Positions 15,782 through 38,786 of a stretch of 64,000 bases of DNA are shown piece after piece. Each line of letters starts with the position of its first letter. Positions within the stretch are counted from its first letter, which is position 1. A program made the translations under genes and the position numbers. Location: the NCBI GenBank assembly GCA_964369115.1, contig CAYJED010000001.1, positions 3,732-67,731 of the forward strand, given 5' to 3'. Below the pieces are notes generated by a model. The model searched no databases, had not been told where the DNA came from, and worked only from the letters and a program-made list of their open reading frames with translations. This stretch comes from an uncultured Candidatus Saccharibacteria bacterium (GTDB lineage Bacteria; Patescibacteriota; Minisyncoccia; Phycocordibacterales; UBA5272).

Positions 15782-16621
15782 GTGCCTACGATGAGTATGC
15801 CTGTTAATCTCTTTGTGGTACTTCACGGTGAATCGCTTGGTAATCTTGTGAATCGACAAGGTTCACAAGGTAATCCTGTCTTTCTTGAAACTCTTAAACA
15901 AACACATACTGCACATTGGCCACTTTCGAATAAAGGCCGAGAGCAAGCAGGGCTTACGGGTGTTTTTTTGAATGATTTATTTAACAGCGAGAATATCATT
16001 TTTGATCAAGCGTATGTTTCAGCTTATGCTCGAGCACTTGAAACTGCTGCTAGGCTTGAAATTGCGCGATGTGCTTGGCGTGTCGATTCGCGGATTGTTG
16101 AACGAAATTGGGGAGACTTAGACGGTCTTTCAGAAGAAGAAAGACAAGGTCGTTATAAGGATGTAATGAAGATGCGTCATACGGAGCCGTATTTTTGGAA
16201 TATTCCAAACGGTGAACCTTTTGATCGTTTTGTTGTGCGTATTCGTGACTTCGTTGATTCGTTGTACCGGGCAGGTGTGCAAAATGTGCTTGTTGTATGT
16301 CATGGTGAAGTGATGAAAGCACTTCGGGTGATACTTACTGGTATGACACCAGAAGAGTATTCTCTGATGGAGTTTTCGGATGACCCGCTTGTACGCATTC
16401 ATAACTGCCAAGTTGATCACTATACGCGTAATAATCCAAATCAAAGAGAAAAGGTAAAAACACTTTCCTGGCTTCGTGTGTATCGCCCGTCTGAAGAGCT
16501 GTACGATCACACTTCTTCGGTTGCTGTTGATTGGACACCTATCAAGCGTCGCACCTACGACAGTCACGAACTTTTCGTTATGTCAGGAGAGATGTCAAAA
16601 GATTTGAGAGATTACGTGTAA
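15782..16621 (+). CDS. Histidine phosphatase superfamily protein (phosphoglycerate mutase-like)
   Basis: N-terminal VVLHGES motif and VVCHGEVMKAL. Followed by hairpin terminator 16632..16670. Confidence 0.6.
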   Translation: MPTMSMPVNLFVVLHGESLGNLVNRQGSQGNPVFLETLKQTHTAHWPLSNKGREQAGLTGVFLNDLFNSENIIFDQAYVSAYARALETAARLEIARCAWRVDSRIVERNWGDLDGLSEEERQGRYKDVMKMRHTEPYFWNIPNGEPFDRFVVRIRDFVDSLYRAGVQNVLVVCHGEVMKALRVILTGMTPEEYSLMEFSDDPLVRIHNCQVDHYTRNNPNQREKVKTLSWLRVYRPSEELYDHTSSVAVDWTPIKRRTYDSHELFVMSGEMSKDLRDYV

Positions 16622-29471: not shown

Positions 29472-29555
29472 GCGTAGATGGTGGAGTGGCCAATCACAAT
29501 TGACTGTAAATCAATCGCCCTTCGGGCTTCGCTGGTTCGAATCCAGCTCTACGCA
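29472..29555 (+). tRNA. tRNA-Tyr (anticodon GTA)
   Basis: Acceptor GCGTAGA/TCTACGC, anticodon loop CTGTAAA, long variable arm, T-arm GCTGG-TTCGAAT-CCAGC. CCA is not encoded. Confidence 0.88.
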
Positions 29556-29694
29556 CAACCCAGTACGAAAGGAGGCGAAAGCCTCCTTTCGTCGTTCTCC
29601 TGTAAGCTTTTTGTTTAGTTCCAACGCTCGATCTTTTTAAAAAGAGCGATCAAGATAAGGAATTTGGTGTTTCTTGGAAAAATCAAGTAATTAA

Positions 29695-29976
29695 TTATTT
29701 AACAAGTGGAAAATCAGCCATTTTTTTATTGAGTATGCTCGTTTCCTTAAAGTTGGCGAAGAAGATAAGTATCTTCAGGATAATGAACTGACAGCTCTTC
29801 GTAAAGCGATTAAAGAAAATTTAACATTTACAACCGGTGAGATTGATTCATGGGACAAAGAAGGAGAATGGACAGCGGAAGTAAAAGCATTGCTTGACTA
29901 TGTAGGTAAACACTATATTCAGGTTAAAGAAAGTGATCTTGCGAAATTTGAAGAGGAAGATTTTGATGATGAGTAA
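29695..29976 (+). pseudogene. Start-less ORF remnant, about 93 codons; probable 3' fragment of a disrupted gene
   Basis: Open frame ending at TAA 29974-29976 with no in-frame ATG, GTG or TTG start after the upstream stop at 29692. Confidence 0.35.
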
Positions 29977-31492: not shown

Positions 31493-32779
31493 TTATCTTT
31501 CTTTAGAAAGATGTAGAAAAGGGCGACTGAAAGGGAGTCCTTTTTCGCTTAGACGTAGAAGTTCATTATATTTAGAAAGTCTGTCTGTGCGTGAAAGTGA
31601 ACCAATTTTTACTTGGCCTGCACCTGAAGCAACGGCAAAATGCACGATACTTACATCTTCAGTTTCTCCTGATCTGTGAGATATAATTGTGCGCATGTCG
31701 TGCTTGTGAGCATACTCGATTGCGTCTACCGTCTCTGAGACTGTTCCTATTTGATTTGGTTTTATGAGCACAGTGTTTGCTGCACCTTCCGTCACTCCGC
31801 GTGTAATGTGTTGCACATTTGTAGTAAAGAGATCATCCCCAACTATCTGCAATTGTTGGCCGTGTTGTTGTGTAAATGATTTCCATGAAGACCAGTCATT
31901 TTCATCAAAACCATCTTCAATCGAAAGTATCGGAAAATGTTCAATTAAATTGCTAAGAAAATTTTGCATATCTTCACTAGAAAAATGCTTCCGGTCAGCT
32001 GCAAGGTGATATTCTTCATCTTTATAGAGTTCACTTGCTGCAACGTCAATAGCAAATGCTATATCTTTTCCTGGGATAAGTTCTACTTTACGAATCGCAT
32101 CAATCAAGATAAGGAGCGCTTCTTTATTTTGTTTTGCATTTGTTATAGGAAACCCTCCTTCGTCTCCAACTCCGCTTACCCCTCGAGCATTCATTATTTC
32201 TTTTAATGTATAAAAAACACGAGCACTCATCTCAAGACTGTCTTTAAAGGATGTTTTAGAAAGAGGGACAATCATCCATTCTTGTATATCTGTTGAGTGT
32301 GGTGCATGCTTACCGCCGTTAAGCACATTAATAAGTGGGGTAGGGATAGAGGCCGGGTAAGTAAAAGAAAACTCTTCACGTAAATGTTCGTAGAGAAGTA
32401 TATTTTTCATTAAAGCACTTGCTTTTGCGAAGGCAAGTGATAGAGGAAGAAGAGCGTTTGCTCCAAAACGCGCCTTAGTATCTGTCCCATCAAGAGACAG
32501 AAGGTGATTATCAAAATCTCTCTGTGAAGAAAAATGTTTATTAAGTAATTGGTTTTTTAATGTTGTATCGATAGACTCAAGTACACACTCAACACCTTTT
32601 CCATTAAAATAAGCATCACCGTCCCTTTTTTCAAGAGCTTCTCGTGACCCTGTTGAAGCCCCAGACGGAGCGCTCGCTCTTCCTGTGTATACTTTATCAA
32701 TTGTAAGATCAACTTCGACGGTAGGTATGCCGCGAGAGTCTAGTATCATTCGAGAAACAATGCTAGTAATTATTGTCAT
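31493..32779 (-). CDS. eno: Enolase
   Basis: N-terminus ILDSRGIPTVEVDL and full enolase barrel. 428 aa. Confidence 0.95.
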   Translation of the reverse strand: MTIITSIVSRMILDSRGIPTVEVDLTIDKVYTGRASAPSGASTGSREALEKRDGDAYFNGKGVECVLESIDTTLKNQLLNKHFSSQRDFDNHLLSLDGTDTKARFGANALLPLSLAFAKASALMKNILLYEHLREEFSFTYPASIPTPLINVLNGGKHAPHSTDIQEWMIVPLSKTSFKDSLEMSARVFYTLKEIMNARGVSGVGDEGGFPITNAKQNKEALLILIDAIRKVELIPGKDIAFAIDVAASELYKDEEYHLAADRKHFSSEDMQNFLSNLIEHFPILSIEDGFDENDWSSWKSFTQQHGQQLQIVGDDLFTTNVQHITRGVTEGAANTVLIKPNQIGTVSETVDAIEYAHKHDMRTIISHRSGETEDVSIVHFAVASGAGQVKIGSLSRTDRLSKYNELLRLSEKGLPFSRPFLHLSKER

Positions 32780-32851
32780 ATGTGTGGTTGTGTTTTAAGT
32801 ATACACGACAACGAAGTTATTTTACGTGATATACTTATTCATGATTGCTAT

Positions 32852-34504
32852 ATGAAATGTTATTGCTACGAAACTCAAGATATCGAAAAAAATTTTTTTG
32901 AACAACATAAAAATGACGTCGATTTCATATATAAAGAACATCCACTTAATGAAGATTCTGTTACAGAAGATGCTGAGATAGTAACTGTTTTTGTTAATAG
33001 TAAAGTTACTAAAGAGGTTTTGGATAAAATGCCAAAGCTTACTTTTATAGCTACACGCTCGACAGGATTTAATCATATAGATATTGAAGAAGCAGAAAGA
33101 CGAGATATTACAGTCGTCTCTGTCCCCGCGTATGGAGAGCACACCGTCGCTGAGTATGCCTTCGGGTCACTTCTTTCGCTAACAAGAAAAATTCCTGAGG
33201 CTGTAAAAATGACAAGGGAAAATATATGTATTCCTCCAGAGCTTGTAAGAGGGGTTGATCTTTGTGGTAAGACAATAGGTATTATCGGTGCCGGAAGAAT
33301 AGGAAAAAAAATGATTGCCATGGCAAAAGGTTTTTCTATGAATGTTGTTGTGTATGATGAATATAAAGATCAAGATTCTGCGGCGGCTCTTGGCTATGTG
33401 TATACATCTTTTGATGATCTTTTGATTCAGTCCGATGTTATTTCTATTCACATGCCACTTACGGACCTAACTCATCATATGTTAAATAAAGAGGCCTTCT
33501 TAAAGATGAAAAAAGATGTGTATATTATTAATACTGCACGGGGTGAGCTTATCGATACTGCTGCGCTTATTGATGCTTTGGTTCAAAATAAAATTAAAGG
33601 CTGCGCACTTGATGTTTGTGAAGGGGAAGAGCTTCTTATTAAAAAATGCAGCCCTGAGTTTTTGGCGTCACTACAGAGCAGGACACTTCTTAAGGAGTCG
33701 GCTCATTTGCAGATTTTAAAATCAATGCCAAATGTACTCTTAAGCCCCCATATTGCTTACGACACAGAAGAGGCTCTTATAAGAATATGTTCAACAACTA
33801 TAGAGTCAGTGTGTGCATATATTAACCACGAAGAAATTAAGAACAAAGTGTCTTCACAACCTTCTAAGTTTGGAAAACTTGTTATCGTTCGTCACACAGA
33901 ATCTGAATGGAATAAAGAGGGTAAATGGACAGGTTCACGAAATGTCCACCTTTCTATGAAAGGCTTTGAAGACGCAAGATTGCTCGGGCTTGCTTTAGAG
34001 GGTATACATATTGATCATGCGTTTGCCTCAGAGCAAGTGCGCACCATGGAGACATTATCGTCAATGTTGGGCACTATGCGGCAACCGACGGTTCCAATAA
34101 CGCGAGATAGCGCACTAAATGAACGAGACTACGGTGAATATACTGGTAAAAATAAGCATGACATGAAAGTTATTCTTGGTGACGAACAGTTTGAGAAAGT
34201 TAGACGTGGGTACGATGTTGCGATTCCTCACGGAGAAACACTAAAAATGGTGTATGAACGGGTTTCCTCTTACTTTGTTTCTAATATTTTGCCACGACTA
34301 GAAAAAGGACAGACTGTGCTTATTGTTTCTCATGGTAACGCCCTTCGTGCTCTTATGAAATATATTGAAAAACTTTCCGATGAACAAATTGAACACACTG
34401 AAATGATGTTTGGTGGAGCTCTGGTGTATACCTTGTCAAAAGATGGAGGGGTTGTTCATAAAGAATTACGAGAAACACCTTCTCGCTCGTACGATTATGT
34501 TTAA
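32852..34504 (+). CDS. Fusion protein: N-terminal D-isomer-specific 2-hydroxyacid dehydrogenase, C-terminal 2,3-BPG-dependent phosphoglycerate mutase
   Basis: NAD-binding GIIGAGRIGKKMI with a 2-HADH catalytic domain, then LVIVRHTESEWNKEGKWTGSRNV (GpmA RHGE signature) and SHGNALRAL. Start set at the internal ATG, because the ORF at 32780 would abut the eno start. Confidence 0.8.
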   Translation: MKCYCYETQDIEKNFFEQHKNDVDFIYKEHPLNEDSVTEDAEIVTVFVNSKVTKEVLDKMPKLTFIATRSTGFNHIDIEEAERRDITVVSVPAYGEHTVAEYAFGSLLSLTRKIPEAVKMTRENICIPPELVRGVDLCGKTIGIIGAGRIGKKMIAMAKGFSMNVVVYDEYKDQDSAAALGYVYTSFDDLLIQSDVISIHMPLTDLTHHMLNKEAFLKMKKDVYIINTARGELIDTAALIDALVQNKIKGCALDVCEGEELLIKKCSPEFLASLQSRTLLKESAHLQILKSMPNVLLSPHIAYDTEEALIRICSTTIESVCAYINHEEIKNKVSSQPSKFGKLVIVRHTESEWNKEGKWTGSRNVHLSMKGFEDARLLGLALEGIHIDHAFASEQVRTMETLSSMLGTMRQPTVPITRDSALNERDYGEYTGKNKHDMKVILGDEQFEKVRRGYDVAIPHGETLKMVYERVSSYFVSNILPRLEKGQTVLIVSHGNALRALMKYIEKLSDEQIEHTEMMFGGALVYTLSKDGGVVHKELRETPSRSYDYV

Positions 34505-35570
34505 TGTTTATTATGGTTCACCAAAAATTATCGCAACACTTGGTCCTTCAAGCGACACAGTGCCTGTACTAGATGAAATGCTTAAAGCGGGGATGTTTTT
34601 AGCAAGGTGCAACTTTAGTCATGGTTCATATGCTGAGCACGCGAAGCGTTTAAATAACCTTACCTCAGTTCAAAAAAATAATGGCCACAAAATATTTAGT
34701 TTTGCTGATCTCTGTGGACCAAAAGTGAGAACGGTTGTAAAAGAAGGTGAGCTCATTTTAGAAGAAGGAGAAGTGGTTGTGATAACAGGCTCACAGGTTC
34801 CTATGGAAAATTCTATTTTATATAAAACATTTTCAGTGACCTATGCACACGTACATGAAGAGGTTAAGAATGGTGCAACTATTCTTTTAGATGATGGGAA
34901 GCTTATGCTTACGGTAATAAAAATAGAAGGTGAATATATTTACACGGAGGTAAATCGTTCTGGAGTATTACGTGACGAAAAAGGGGTTAGTATTCCTGGA
35001 GCATTTAAAAAACTCTCTGTCTTAACAGAAAAAGATAAAAAAGATATTGAGTATATTATTGCACACGCTTATGATGCGGTAGCTCTTTCTTTTGTTAAAT
35101 CAGAAGAAGATATTGCTTATTTCAAAAAATATACAGAAGAAAAATATAAGAGAAATCTCCCTGTTATTGCGAAAATTGAAACAATTGAAGCGCTTAAAAA
35201 TATTGAAGCTATTGCAAAAATTAGTGATGCTATTATGGTTGCGCGAGGAGATTTAGGTGTTGAGATAGGGGTATCACACGTTCCGTTGTGGCAGAAAAAA
35301 ATATGTGATATTGCAAAAAAATATAATAAGCCAGTCATTGTTGCAACGCAGATGCTTCAATCGATGGTACATGAAGAAACTCCAACACGAGCAGAGGTAA
35401 GTGATGTTGTTAATGCAATTTTAGATGGAGCGTCATACCTTATGCTTTCTGATGAAACAACAATAGGGGATAACCCCGTGCGCACTGTGGCGCAACTGTC
35501 AGAACTTATTCAAACATATAAAGAAAATCCAATGCAAGAAAAATTTGATGCATACATGATACATGAATAG
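34497..35570 (+). CDS. pyk: Pyruvate kinase, short form lacking the C-terminal regulatory domain
   Basis: PK barrel motifs (IIATLGPSS, MVARGDLGVEI). 8-nt overlap with the upstream gene. Confidence 0.85.
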   Translation: MFNVYYGSPKIIATLGPSSDTVPVLDEMLKAGMFLARCNFSHGSYAEHAKRLNNLTSVQKNNGHKIFSFADLCGPKVRTVVKEGELILEEGEVVVITGSQVPMENSILYKTFSVTYAHVHEEVKNGATILLDDGKLMLTVIKIEGEYIYTEVNRSGVLRDEKGVSIPGAFKKLSVLTEKDKKDIEYIIAHAYDAVALSFVKSEEDIAYFKKYTEEKYKRNLPVIAKIETIEALKNIEAIAKISDAIMVARGDLGVEIGVSHVPLWQKKICDIAKKYNKPVIVATQMLQSMVHEETPTRAEVSDVVNAILDGASYLMLSDETTIGDNPVRTVAQLSELIQTYKENPMQEKFDAYMIHE

Positions 35571-35617
35571 TTAATTAAGGTGTCGCACTACATATTAGTA
35601 TATGCTAATATGTATAT

Positions 35618-35878
35618 ATGGCACACAGTTCACAAGAAATACTATTTAAGGTGTTTGGAAATGAAGAGCGAGTGAAAATGATTTGTTGTTTAGAAAAAAA
35701 ACAATCAGTAACTAAGCTTTTGGAAAAATGTAGACTTTCACAATCAGCAGTTTCTCAGCATTTGTCAGTTTTAAAAGAGGCAAAGATTATTGATTGTGAA
35801 CGTTTAGGTAAGCAGCAGTTCTATTTTGTTGTTAATAAAAAAGCACTCAAAATAGCAAAAGACTTATTAAGGTGCTAA
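35618..35878 (+). CDS. ArsR/SmtB-family transcriptional regulator
   Basis: HTH segment (VTKLLEKCRLSQSAVSQHLSVLKEAKII). Confidence 0.75.
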   Translation: MAHSSQEILFKVFGNEERVKMICCLEKKQSVTKLLEKCRLSQSAVSQHLSVLKEAKIIDCERLGKQQFYFVVNKKALKIAKDLLRC

Positions 35879-35885
35879 ATTTTTT

Positions 35886-36305
35886 ATGAAACATATTGAT
35901 GTCCACTCATTTAAACAAGTTCTTGAAACAGAAAAAAATAATTCAACAGTTGATTTTATTAATGTTTGTACTCTTGTAGAGTATAAAGAAAAACATATTA
36001 ACGGAGTTCGAAGTGTTCCTCTTGATGAGCTTATTTCACATGTTTCTGAATTTAAAAATAAGCAAACCGTCTACATTCATTGCCGTTCTGGTAATAGAGG
36101 TAAAAAAGCAATTGAACTCCTTAATTCTTTAGGGGTAAAGGCAGAACTTGTTAATGTTGAGGGTGGTATTTTAGCTTGGGATGAAGCTGGTTTTGTAACA
36201 AAATCTATTACCACGGCGAAGTTGTCTTTGATGCGTCAAGTTATGTTAGGTGTTGGAACTATTATTATTCTTGTGTATGTGTTTGCATATTTTTTAAATC
36301 CATAG
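35886..36305 (+). CDS. Rhodanese-domain sulfurtransferase with a C-terminal TM anchor
   Basis: Active-site loop CRSGNRG and a rhodanese fold. Confidence 0.75.
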   Translation: MKHIDVHSFKQVLETEKNNSTVDFINVCTLVEYKEKHINGVRSVPLDELISHVSEFKNKQTVYIHCRSGNRGKKAIELLNSLGVKAELVNVEGGILAWDEAGFVTKSITTAKLSLMRQVMLGVGTIIILVYVFAYFLNP

Positions 36306-36433: not shown

Positions 36434-36994
36434 ATGAAAAAATAACACCACTTGTAAAAGAGTTTTTTGATGGTGCAACAAATACAATTAGTTACGTTGT
36501 AACAGACCAAGAAACAAAAATGTCTGTCATTATTGACTCTGTTTTTGATTATGAGCAACATGGTGCAATATTAACAACAAAAAGCGACGACACTATTTTA
36601 TTTTACATTAAGAAAAATGAGTACATCTTACTCTATGTTCTGGAAACTCATGTTCATGCAGATCATCTTACAGCAGCTTCTTACATAAGAGAAAAAACAG
36701 GTGCGAAAATTGGAATCAGTGAAGTGGTTACTGATGTTCAAAAAATTTTTGGTGATGTATTTAGTGTGGTTGATAATTTTTAAAAAAGACGGGAGCCAGC
36801 TTGACGTCCTTCTGAAAGACAGCAACATTCTTTCTCTTTGGTTTTTTTCTATTACTATTATGCCTGTTCCAGGTCACACTCCGGCAGATCTTGCATATCA
36901 TATTAGTGATGTGCTTTTCATCGGTGACACTATCTTTATGCCGGATTATGGTTCAGCACGTTGTTATTTTTTACTGGTCTTCCATTTACTGTAG
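36434..36994 (+). pseudogene. MBL-fold metallo-hydrolase (persulfide dioxygenase-like), frameshifted and truncated
   Basis: HxHxDH motif (ETHVHADHL) and PGHTP occur in different frames. The ATG at 36434 runs into a stop after 3 codons, within an A7 tract. The 3' third of the fold is missing. Confidence 0.6.
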
Positions 36995-37234
36995 CTAAAA
37001 ATATCTCTATTGTGATGATATTCTTTAATGCAGTTATTGGAATTTTTCTTCTAATATTATTCCAATTGTTAATGGAAAAGAAAAATAATACTTTTGTTGG
37101 TTCTAAGTTCTATAATTGGTGCGGGTGTAGGGTTATTCTTAGAGAAGAAAATAAAGCTATTCTATTTAGAAAAAATTTTTGCGGTAATGATTTTGATTCT
37201 CGCTATTTTTATCTTGTGTAAAGAATTGTTGTAG
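36961..37234 (+). pseudogene. TauE/SafE-family sulfite-exporter remnant; C-terminal fragments in two frames
   Basis: Hydrophobic TM segments, with a C-terminus (...SSIIGAGVGLFLEKKIK...AVMILILAIFIL) typical of TauE/SafE. Frame switch at an A-rich tract near 37075. Confidence 0.4.
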
Positions 37235-37301: not shown

Positions 37302-38786
37302 ATGAAGATACTTAAAAATTGTATAGAAAAAATTTTCCCTTATACGCTTCAAAAAAAGTTTTTCTTTTTGTGGTATTTACTTTTTATTTTTCTTGCACTT
37401 CTTCTCATTACTTCTTTCGTTAAGGAGTACAATGAAAACAAAGCATTTTATGATAAGCATCATAATCTTTTTTCTAAAGTAAAAAATGTAGATCCTCTTA
37501 ATACTCGTGGCTTCGAAGAGCGTGTTACATTACTTAAAAAACGTCTTGAAAGTTCTGATAAAAATAATGTTCCAATCAACATAAGCTACGAAGAGTTTTT
37601 TTCTTTACCTAACGACCATTCGGTAGATTATTTTAATAAGGAAACACTTTCTCTTTCAGAGATTGTAGATTTTGATATTGAAAATAAATCACTTACAGTA
37701 AGTGGTGCAACACAAATAGCAAGCATTAACCAGTTTCTTAAAGAGTATGGTCTTGTGCTTCCGCTCGCTGTGCCGTCAAAGTATTCAACTGTGAGTGATA
37801 TTGTTAATTTTAACTTACCAAGTGATTCGCTTGATGATTCTCTTGCAATTGAAACTATTCGTTCATTTAGACTACTCACTCCTTCAGGTGAAGTGGTAAA
37901 CGTTAACCGTGCAGAAAATCCAGAACTCTTTAGTCTTGTGATAGGGGGGTATGGACTTTTTGGTATCATCATTGATGCAGAATTTGAGCTTGCATCTGAT
38001 GGTACTTTTGAAAAAAGAACATACATTTCAAAAAGAGATGATTTCCTCAACCTCTTCTTTTCTAAGATCTTTTTAAAAAACGACACTGTTTCAATGGTTG
38101 CTACACTTTATTTACATCACCCAAGAATCTCTCCTGATGTTATTTCTGTCACTTCTTGGTTTGAGCAGTCTAAAGAAGCTTTGCAAAAAAGAAATGATAA
38201 TGAGTTTTCGCTTTTATTAAAAAATCTTCGTAATGAAATCTCTTTCTTTAAAACAACTGTTCATTTTGATGAGGATATCTTCAAACAGCTTTTTTCAAGG
38301 AATGAGGTTCAGTCAGCTCTTAAGGATATTCTTTTCGAAGAAAAAAATATGTATAAAGATAGAAGGACTAATACATATACCTATTATGTGCCAGTGAGAA
38401 ACCTTAACCCATTTCTTGATTTTATTATAGAAAAAAATAATAATGGTGAGCTCTATACTCCTAAAATTACCCTCTATTTTATTAAAAGTAACAGAGAAGG
38501 GTACTTAAGTCCTTCGTCTAAAGAAGATATGTTTATGGTTACATATACTGATGAATATACGCATACTGACAGGAGAACAAAAGAGGATCGTCAAAAAGTT
38601 CAGCTTGAAGTTACTAAAAAGGTAACAGCATTCACTGGTCGCGACGCCCTTACAAATTCTTACCACGGAAGTAGAGAGGATATGTTGAAACAGTATCAAA
38701 ATATACCTGCTTTTATAAAACAGAAAAATGCACGAGATAGCTTGAGTCTTTTTACCACTGAGTGGTATACGCTATTTAATCAGTAA
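37302..38786 (+). CDS. Membrane-anchored hypothetical protein of 494 aa
   Basis: N-terminal TM. No confident domain call. Confidence 0.55.
   Translation: MKILKNCIEKIFPYTLQKKFFFLWYLLFIFLALLLITSFVKEYNENKAFYDKHHNLFSKVKNVDPLNTRGFEERVTLLKKRLESSDKNNVPINISYEEFFSLPNDHSVDYFNKETLSLSEIVDFDIENKSLTVSGATQIASINQFLKEYGLVLPLAVPSKYSTVSDIVNFNLPSDSLDDSLAIETIRSFRLLTPSGEVVNVNRAENPELFSLVIGGYGLFGIIIDAEFELASDGTFEKRTYISKRDDFLNLFFSKIFLKNDTVSMVATLYLHHPRISPDVISVTSWFEQSKEALQKRNDNEFSLLLKNLRNEISFFKTTVHFDEDIFKQLFSRNEVQSALKDILFEEKNMYKDRRTNTYTYYVPVRNLNPFLDFIIEKNNNGELYTPKITLYFIKSNREGYLSPSSKEDMFMVTYTDEYTHTDRRTKEDRQKVQLEVTKKVTAFTGRDALTNSYHGSREDMLKQYQNIPAFIKQKNARDSLSLFTTEWYTLFNQ

Follow-up and report, generated by a model that had tools for sequence, protein, structure and literature searches.

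A predicted LdhA-like dehydrogenase fused to a short phosphoglycerate mutase is widely conserved in Saccharibacteria

In the LDHD group of NADH-dependent D-lactate dehydrogenases (D-LDHs), the substrate pocket is lined by a Phe, a Tyr, and a third residue that is Phe or Tyr, which together exclude substrates larger than pyruvate, and an Asp residue is the determinant for NADH (PMC6303947). Enzymes of this type also accept hydroxypyruvate, glyoxylate, and 2-ketobutyrate. For the sister subfamily X9, which includes the Aquifex aeolicus enzyme with PDB entry 3kb6, ‘a lack of biochemical evidence’ is noted; 3kb6 was crystallized with lactate bound, and its kinetics were not reported (PMC6303947). 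Metabolic reconstructions of Saccharibacteria let a predicted D-LDH convert pyruvate to D-lactate and thereby regenerate NAD+, and they contain neither pyruvate dehydrogenase nor pyruvate:ferredoxin oxidoreductase and no de novo amino-acid synthesis (PMC6031116). In Patescibacteria, genes for D- or L-LDH are widespread and mutually exclusive (PMC8672522). Here, we describe a gene from an uncultured Candidatus Saccharibacteria bacterium in which a 2-hydroxyacid dehydrogenase (2-HADH) related to these enzymes is joined to a phosphoglycerate mutase that depends on 2,3-bisphosphoglycerate (dPGM). It lies in a stretch of 64,000 nucleotides of contig CAYJED010000001.1, hereafter the window, whose coordinates are used throughout.

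The window contains a single open reading frame (ORF) of 574 aa on the forward strand (32780–34504), within which an ATG at 32852 opens a 550-aa product that is uninterrupted to 34504. The N-termini of homologs from other genomes align with this ATG, and the alternative upstream ATG at 32780 abuts the start of the enolase gene (eno) on the opposite strand, at 32779. For these two reasons, 32852 is taken as the likely start of the fusion, which gene callers extend to 574 aa. In the 550-aa protein, Pfam identifies 2-Hacid_dh at residues 9–333 (E 1e-28), 2-Hacid_dh_C at residues 105–302 (E 4.4e-53), and His_Phos_1 at residues 343–532 (E 1.3e-34), and the mutase half contains the motif RHTESEWN. 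A first-pass annotation, made from the sequence without database searches, had described a single polypeptide with a 2-HADH and a GpmA-type domain, which is confirmed by these matches and by a match of the mutase half to NCBIfam TIGR01258 (pgm_1; 154.2 bits, cut-off 81.7).

The fusion is real and widely conserved in Saccharibacteria (TM7). Seven contigs, which derive from four or more independent samples or assemblies, encode the identical 574-aa product next to the same neighboring genes. A homolog search covering 5.8 billion proteins, with clusters at the 90% identity level, yields at least 120 protein clusters of ~550 aa that combine PF00389, PF02826, and PF00300 and are 44–63% identical to the query; their named sources are Candidatus Saccharimonadales or Saccharibacteria. 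The Pfam matches uphold the assignment to the 2-HADHs. In a tblastn survey with one genome per GTDB species, the in-frame fusion is found in ~26 of the 80 best loci, nearly all of them labeled Saccharibacteria, and the oral TM7 HOT-350 is among the carriers. One locus of this survey, L012, was flagged ‘adjacent’ by our script; its junction is continuous in frame, and the label is unreliable. In a library of representatives at 50% identity, about three full-length fusion clusters are left, which indicates one clade. Across 120 fusion proteins, all checked catalytic and specificity residues of both halves are kept, with only Phe/Tyr, Glu/Gln, and Thr/Ser exchanges. This conservation, together with that of the linker spacing described below, places both halves under purifying selection.

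The N-terminal half (residues 1–333; 32852–33850, forward strand) is predicted from Pfam, PDB, profile, and fold searches to be an NADH-dependent D-LDH of the LdhA/X9 type. The NCBIfam models do not name it clearly. The highest score is obtained for the 3-phosphoglycerate dehydrogenase (PGDH) model TIGR01327 (209.5 bits, cut-off 454), which is matched over its catalytic core only (profile positions 21–311 of 525), followed by VanH D-LDH (201.6 bits) and glyoxylate reductase (191.8 bits), both far below their cut-offs. Because all of these scores fall at 190–210 bits and under the cut-offs, we turned to the Escherichia coli paralogs, residue tests, and a fold search. A profile hidden Markov model (HMM) of 23 fusion N-domains, scored against the five 2-HADH paralogs of E. 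coli K-12, gives 281.5 bits for LdhA, 184.7 for GhrB, 162.0 for SerA, 89.4 for PdxB, and 53.7 for GhrA, and the match to LdhA is colinear across the whole N-domain (3–330 versus 2–323). D-LDHs also lead the phmmer search against the PDB (3kb6 with 211 bits, 5z21 and 4zgs with 197 bits each), ahead of the archaeal ‘PHGDH’ 1wwk (179 bits) and the phosphoglycerate dehydrogenase (PHGDH) of Mycobacterium tuberculosis (143 bits). Using the AlphaFold2 (AF2) model of the fusion as query, Foldseek places only D-LDHs and pyruvate reductases at ranks 1–29, and PHGDHs appear from rank 36.

The residues of the N-half point in the same direction. The catalytic triad Arg230–Glu259–His300 is conserved in all 120 sequences, as are Phe47, which aligns with LdhA Phe51 in the β3-α3 loop, and Tyr94 in the VPxYG motif (β5-αA). 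Position 303, in the motif PHxA[YF]xT that follows the catalytic His (βG-α5), is Phe in 71 sequences and Tyr in 49. Asp169 aligns with the Asp of the LdhA motif ‘FDPY’ in the NADH loop (βB-αD) and is likewise invariant (120/120). The fusion N-half thus has the fold and Arg-Glu-His triad of E. coli LdhA (PDB 3wx0/5z1z) and of the X9 enzyme aq_727 of A. aeolicus (3kb6), and it has in common with them the Asp for NADH preference, the Phe/Tyr/Phe-Tyr pocket, and, between its catalytic Glu and His, an insertion of the LdhA type. This insertion is ~10 residues longer before the catalytic His than in E. coli LdhA, and identity to LdhA-type structures is only ~33–36%. By sequence, the N-half is LdhA-like and not SerA-like: it carries every LDHD feature that we examined, whereas it stays below the TIGR01327 cut-off, has no phosphate-binding Arg, and ranks SerA behind LdhA by profile score, so that none of the examined features of the SERA group is found. 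Since the closest structure, 3kb6, belongs to the biochemically uncharacterized X9, we assign the N-half to the LdhA/X9 group and do not call it a proven D-LDH.

The C-terminal half (33872–34504, forward strand) is assigned as a short dPGM domain from the TIGR01258 match, its best PDB match, and residue conservation. The best match, with 143 bits and from end to end, is the 211-aa phosphoglycerate mutase (PGM) of Schizosaccharomyces pombe (1fzt). The score for the equivalog model PRK01295, 181.5 bits, is below its cut-off of 316. Scores against dPGMs are 100–143 bits, whereas those against phosphatases of the superfamily, such as PhoE (62 bits), PspA (57 bits), and CobC, are 39–62 bits. The residues Arg347, His348, Ser351, Asn354, Thr360, and Gly361 correspond to Arg10, His11, Ser14, Asn17, Thr23, and Gly24 of GpmA; Arg397, Glu424, Tyr427, and Lys435 to Arg62, Glu89, Tyr92, and Lys100; and Arg451, Arg452, His494, Gly495, and Asn496 to Arg116, Arg117, His184, Gly185, and Asn186. 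Of the phospho-histidine motif (RHGE-S-WN in the family), Arg347, His348, Ser351, and Asn354 are conserved in 120 of 120 fusion homologs, as are the second His in HGN, the Arg/Glu core, Gly361, Tyr427, Lys435, Arg451, and Arg452; position 360 varies, with Thr in 107 sequences and Ser in the other 13. We take Tyr92, Lys100, and Arg116-Arg117 (E. coli numbering) to be the residues that separate dPGMs from the phosphatases of the superfamily.

In the alignment with E. coli GpmA, the C-half is missing a loop of ~25 residues and the C-terminal tail. The active S. pombe enzyme is without both as well, so their absence marks a short subtype and leaves membership intact. From these comparisons, the C-half is predicted to be a true mutase of the short S. 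pombe type. It has the same loop and tail deletions as 1fzt and the 206-aa bacterial dPGMs of the PRK01295 type, and all phospho-histidine and substrate-binding residues; unlike 1fzt, it is a domain of a 550-aa protein and not a free monomer. A second protein of the histidine phosphatase superfamily is encoded at 15782–16621 in the window (279 aa; His_Phos_1, 1.2e-24), with ‘LHGES’ in place of ‘RHGES’. It was considered as a dPGM and rejected, as it reaches 29.8 bits with TIGR01258 against the cut-off of 81.7.

The two halves are connected by a linker of ~7 residues (SSQPSKF; 33851–33871, forward strand), delimited by homolog alignment. Its sequence varies across homologs and its length is nearly constant: among 102 scorable fusion homologs, 96 have 41 residues from His300 to the GKL motif. 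Stand-alone dPGMs start with M(T)GKL..RHxESEWN, which is the exact fusion junction (..F-GKLVIVRHTESEWN), and compared with these short enzymes the fusion has the 7-residue linker in place of the initiator Met. The AF2 model has a mean predicted local distance difference test score (pLDDT) of 85.1 and a predicted template modeling score (pTM) of 0.48. This combination indicates two well-folded domains whose mutual orientation and interface are modeled without confidence.

The fusion gene is flanked by genes of lower glycolysis. Directly upstream, on the opposite strand, eno encodes an enolase of 428 aa (31493–32779, reverse strand; Pfam Enolase_N 3.8e-42, Enolase_C 6.8e-91), and the ORF list and the homolog alignment leave an intergenic region of 72 bp (32780–32851) between its divergent start and the likely start of the fusion. 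Directly downstream, pyk encodes a pyruvate kinase of 357 aa that consists of the barrel domain only (34497–35570, forward strand; Pfam PK 2.5e-92). The first 8 nt of pyk (34497–34504) are also the last of the fusion ORF, whose stop codon is at 34502–34504, an overlap that had been read from the sequence at first pass. The pyk product scores 386.8 bits against TIGR01064 (cut-off 306.4), with profile positions 4–342 of 476 covered, and Pfam finds no allosteric C-terminal PK_C domain in it. The earlier description of an eno/fusion/pyk cluster for lower glycolysis holds as far as adjacency is concerned; eno, being on the minus strand, is not co-transcribed with the fusion. A scan of 32600–35750, including the intergenic region between eno and the fusion, reveals no excess of promoter-like signals over shuffled sequences, and the fusion and pyk are not separated by any terminator found in it.

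Of 27 fused loci, 24 have eno as the immediate upstream neighbor of the fusion, mostly in divergent orientation. Only the closest relatives of the window (L005, L006, and L008) have pyk directly after the fusion, and in other fused loci it is 3–4 kb away or absent from the flank. The fusion, eno, and pyk most likely form a ~4-kb cluster for the conversion of 3-phosphoglycerate (3PG) through 2-phosphoglycerate (2PG), phosphoenolpyruvate, and pyruvate to D-lactate. With regard to pyk in other lineages, the tblastn matches in Parcubacteria relatives also skip residues 80–170, which suggests a Pyk even shorter than that of the window, and the Pyk of Southlakia is full-length (475 aa).

Stand-alone homologs of the N-half (~325 aa, 40–46% identity) are found in Paceibacterota/Parcubacteria, in DPANN archaea, and in others, and very often eno comes directly after them, with pyk next in order. 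L070 has a separate dPGM at a distance of 2 kb, which shares 55% identity with the C-half. The stand-alone LdhA-like enzymes and dPGMs of other members of the candidate phyla radiation (CPR), as well as SEML1_0709 of Southlakia, are thus related to the two halves (40–46% for the N-half, 51–55% for the C-half) and occupy the same neighborhood, but as separate polypeptides. In a quick neighbor-joining (NJ) distance tree, computed without support values, all fused N-domains fall into a single clade. Its sister is the clade of stand-alone CPR/DPANN enzymes, and E. coli LdhA branches outside the two. Since the stand-alone homologs adjoin eno and pyk, the fusion is most likely one of cluster neighbors, and we infer a single early event in Saccharibacteria in which packed genes were merged by loss of a stop codon.

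A few relatives lack the joined form. In L052 (5851–7565) the two halves are separate genes with a 4-nt ATGA overlap, and L045 (6001–7008) and L038 (6001–7017) have genes for the N-half only, in which the NKV motif is still followed by a tail resembling the linker. All three are nested inside the fused clade of the NJ tree, suggesting a secondary split or domain loss, or errors in assembly or in the metagenome-assembled genomes (MAGs). Neither of the cultivated oral models obviously carries the fusion. Southlakia has the dPGM SEML1_0709, which works there as a stand-alone enzyme and is divergent from eno, and no annotated D-LDH, and TM7x uses an L-LDH. In the supplement of the Southlakia transposon-sequencing study the dPGM is listed as non-essential, and the main text of that study has no discussion of glycolysis. 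The simplest reading is that the fusion is dispensable where the fermentation enzyme has been replaced.

Taken as a whole, these observations are best explained, with a probability that we put at roughly 0.8, by a bifunctional protein composed of an LdhA/X9-type D-LDH and a short dPGM, which would work as independent halves, would derive from merged cluster neighbors, and would not channel a metabolite between them. The C-half would interconvert 3PG and 2PG in a reaction dependent on 2,3-bisphosphoglycerate (2,3-BPG), Eno and Pyk would carry 2PG to pyruvate with a gain of ATP, and the N-half would reduce pyruvate to D-lactate with NADH, regenerating NAD+ for fermentation. This scheme agrees with the published reconstructions of Saccharibacteria, which give this gene the role of the NAD+-regenerating D-LDH (PMC6031116), and with the distribution of D- and L-LDH genes in Patescibacteria (PMC8672522). 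The fusion would thereby join the first and the last enzyme, steps one and four, of the route from 3PG to D-lactate. Because the enolase and pyruvate kinase steps lie between them, the two activities share no metabolite, and direct channeling is not expected. The stop codon between the tightly packed neighbors would have been lost in an ancestor of Saccharibacteria, and the fusion may have been kept for 1:1 co-expression in a minimal genome with little regulation, in which Pyk, too, is without an allosteric domain. Tethering of a normally monomeric mutase to an oligomeric partner is possibly an added benefit. The fused architecture and its conservation, the families of the two halves, and the synteny are established by the data; the substrates in vivo and the direction of flux, like the origin through a lost stop codon and the selective benefit, we infer from them.

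Several points weigh against this explanation. The top NCBIfam model for the N-half is PGDH, marginally above VanH D-LDH and with no cut-off reached; as no curated D-LDH model reaches its cut-off either, the LDHD assignment is one at the level of the group and not of an equivalog. X9, the subfamily of the closest structural relative, is biochemically uncharacterized, and enzymes of the LDHD type can reduce hydroxypyruvate and glyoxylate too. The fused clade comes from a quick distance tree whose nodes carry no support values. L052 is nested in this clade, and therefore its separate genes may represent a secondary split or an assembly error instead of the state before the fusion. The near-fixed length of the linker could hint at a defined geometry of the two domains, other than that of beads on a string. 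Finally, a different reductase adjoins the mutase gene in other CPR members and leaves some room for a role related to glycerate.

This reductase is a GhrB-like 2-HADH with the motif PHIASAS, 29–33% identical to the N-half, and it is encoded directly upstream of a stand-alone dPGM of 211 aa (L029:5908–7524, L031:1809–3455, L032:155–1774, L033, L034, and L069), with pyk and/or eno coming next in most cases. The same slot of the cluster is thus filled by another reductase subfamily. In three of these loci the two genes are in the same frame with a single stop codon between them. The tblastn matches in L029, L031–L034, and L069 had been taken as a second, independent group of fusions, which we reject, as the frames show a stop codon between the GhrB-like reductase and the dPGM.

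The presence of a GhrB-like enzyme ahead of dPGM, pyk, and eno favors a broader view of the N-half, as a reductase of 2-ketoacids or of hydroxypyruvate and glyoxylate and not chiefly of pyruvate, in a cluster that would handle some other 2-hydroxyacid, for example D-glycerate converted to 2PG or 3PG by way of a kinase. The range of substrates accepted by LDHD members, hydroxypyruvate, glyoxylate, and 2-ketobutyrate, and the missing biochemistry of X9 are compatible with such a function (PMC6303947). Against it stand the invariant pocket of Phe47, Tyr94, and Tyr/Phe303, an arrangement reported to keep out any substrate bigger than pyruvate, and the lactate bound in the crystals of 3kb6 (PMC6303947). 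Furthermore, the NADH-type Asp169 fits a fermentative role, and no glycerate kinase is seen in the loci that we examined, where no systematic search was made for one. We therefore regard a broad reductase as unlikely.

A further possibility concerns the joined form itself. The fusion could act as a scaffold, in which the fixed linker nucleates a four-enzyme complex with Eno and the translationally coupled Pyk, or the occupancy of the mutase by phosphoglycerate or 2,3-BPG could tune the regeneration of NAD+. Such a role, if true, would replace allosteric control that was lost from minimal genomes. We consider it doubtful, and prefer the reading of a bifunctional protein with two independent halves.

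Much less probable is the reading of the first-pass annotation, in which the N-half belongs to the SerA or glycerate dehydrogenase family and the fusion channels 3PG between glycolysis and serine or glycerate metabolism. This reading probably arose from the ambiguity of the NCBIfam models, of which TIGR01327 is the top one by bits (209.5); the score of the archaeal ‘PHGDH’ 1wwk (179 bits), the GhrB-like reductase upstream of dPGM in other CPR members, and 3PG as a metabolite shared on paper also speak in its favor. The fusion N-half and SerA are indeed members of one superfamily, with the same two-domain fold and triad and with appreciable HMM scores over the whole domain. However, TIGR01327 stays far under its 454-bit cut-off, and the N-domain profile ranks SerA 120 bits below LdhA (162.0 versus 281.5). 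Arg60 of SerA is the phosphate-binding Arg of the β3-α3 loop, found as ‘VRS’ in type I enzymes. Its position is taken by the invariant Phe47 in 120 of 120 sequences, no conserved basic residue replaces it across this alignment, and Arg62 of SerA has no conserved counterpart. The motif after the catalytic His is the LdhA-like PHxA[YF]xT and not PHxGxST, and Pfam finds no ACT/ASB regulatory domain in the fusion protein. PHGDH structures rank 36th or lower with Foldseek, where D-LDHs take the leading places. E. coli LdhA is placed by the NJ tree with the fusion and CPR clade and apart from GhrB and SerA. Saccharibacteria are, moreover, reported to have no de novo amino-acid biosynthesis (PMC6031116). 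At the level of sequence, the serine/glycerate reading is largely refuted, and with an LdhA-type N-half that shares no metabolite with the mutase, the proposed channeling is not supported.

An artefact, in which an assembly frameshift or a missed stop has merged two genes, can practically be set aside: a 1-nt error could make or break the fusion, the related MAG L052 has separate genes with a 4-nt overlap, and two odd fusions, P0164 and P0127, are single-contig observations, but the identical ORF on seven contigs of independent assemblies, the in-frame junction in at least 120 clusters and ~26 GTDB species representatives, the conserved linker length, and the conserved residues answer this earlier concern without recourse to reads.

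The two odd fusions come from the 50%-identity library. P0164 (L091) combines a pyruvate kinase barrel with His_Phos_1 in 482 aa, and P0127 (L092) combines His_Phos_1 with two tandem 2-HADH units in 929 aa; each lies on one short contig, both may be artefacts, and no conclusion here depends on them. Other architectures observed are tandem-duplicated 2-HADHs (P0126, P0129, P0167, and P0175) and a protein with a 2-HADH and a CHAD domain (P0258).

Elsewhere in the window, the 3′ end of tRNA-Tyr (29472–29558) is the site of a ~3.75-kb insertion in near-identical strains, whose flanks have 99.7% DNA identity. The insertion is found at L002:3014–6773 and L001:1447–5198 and is absent from the window and from L003. 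Its cargo consists of an archaeal-type S-adenosylmethionine synthetase (PF01941), a peptidase S51, a small ORF, and the catalytic domain of a class-I aminoacyl-tRNA synthetase (tRNA-synt_1c), with the ORFs fragmented in L001. A 100-bp stretch of the window (29629–29729) is repeated inside the insertion, which looks like a small tRNA-targeted island or, alternatively, a strain-specific deletion. Downstream of pyk, an ArsR-like helix-turn-helix gene and a rhodanese gene (35618–35878 and 35886–36305) precede a metallo-beta-lactamase-fold gene that has come apart into three ORFs (87, 97, and 86 aa) overlapping one another (36520–37221), two of which match consecutive parts of Pfam Lactamase_B. Since similar small ORFs (86–97 aa), unannotated, are called at the same position in independent contigs, this is probably a real pseudogene, and probably that of a persulfide dioxygenase or glyoxalase-II-like enzyme. 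At 37302–38786, the window encodes a protein of 494 aa with an N-terminal hydrophobic segment, which is conserved beside the cluster in four of four same-species contigs. It has a weak likeness to FAD-linked oxidases, with 22.7 bits for FAD_binding_4, below the cut-off, and 26–33 bits for models of DprE1 and sugar-lactone oxidases.

Full-text literature searches returned no published description of the fusion, in line with the first-pass statement that the architecture appears uncharacterized, and the family is abundant in databases under names that cover one half only, ‘D-lactate dehydrogenase’ at JGI and ‘dPGM’ at NCBI. The fused architecture appears to be a lineage-wide variant that has been neither described nor assayed before. 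Compared with LdhA and the X9 enzymes, it adds a C-terminal dPGM domain that is seen in none of these reference proteins, and its predicted role is like that of LdhA, to end glycolysis by reducing pyruvate to D-lactate. As a consequence of the half-names, either PGM or LDH can be wrongly counted as absent in reconstructions of Saccharibacteria.

Both halves are textbook enzymes, and no new chemistry is implied. Most likely, the fusion represents merged neighbors of one glycolysis and fermentation cluster in a tiny genome, not a new metabolic link. Together with the linkage to eno and pyk, it provides evidence of the Rosetta-stone type for assigning the biochemically uncharacterized LdhA-like/X9 2-HADHs found in CPR and DPANN to lower glycolysis and fermentation. 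Should the two halves prove to be kinetically coupled, the protein would be a regulatory fusion, rare in nature, between enzymes that do not act consecutively in their pathway. It offers a clean, lineage-wide example of gene fusion in the course of genome reduction, with an apparently split form in L052 and what look like domain-loss forms in L045 and L038 available for comparison.

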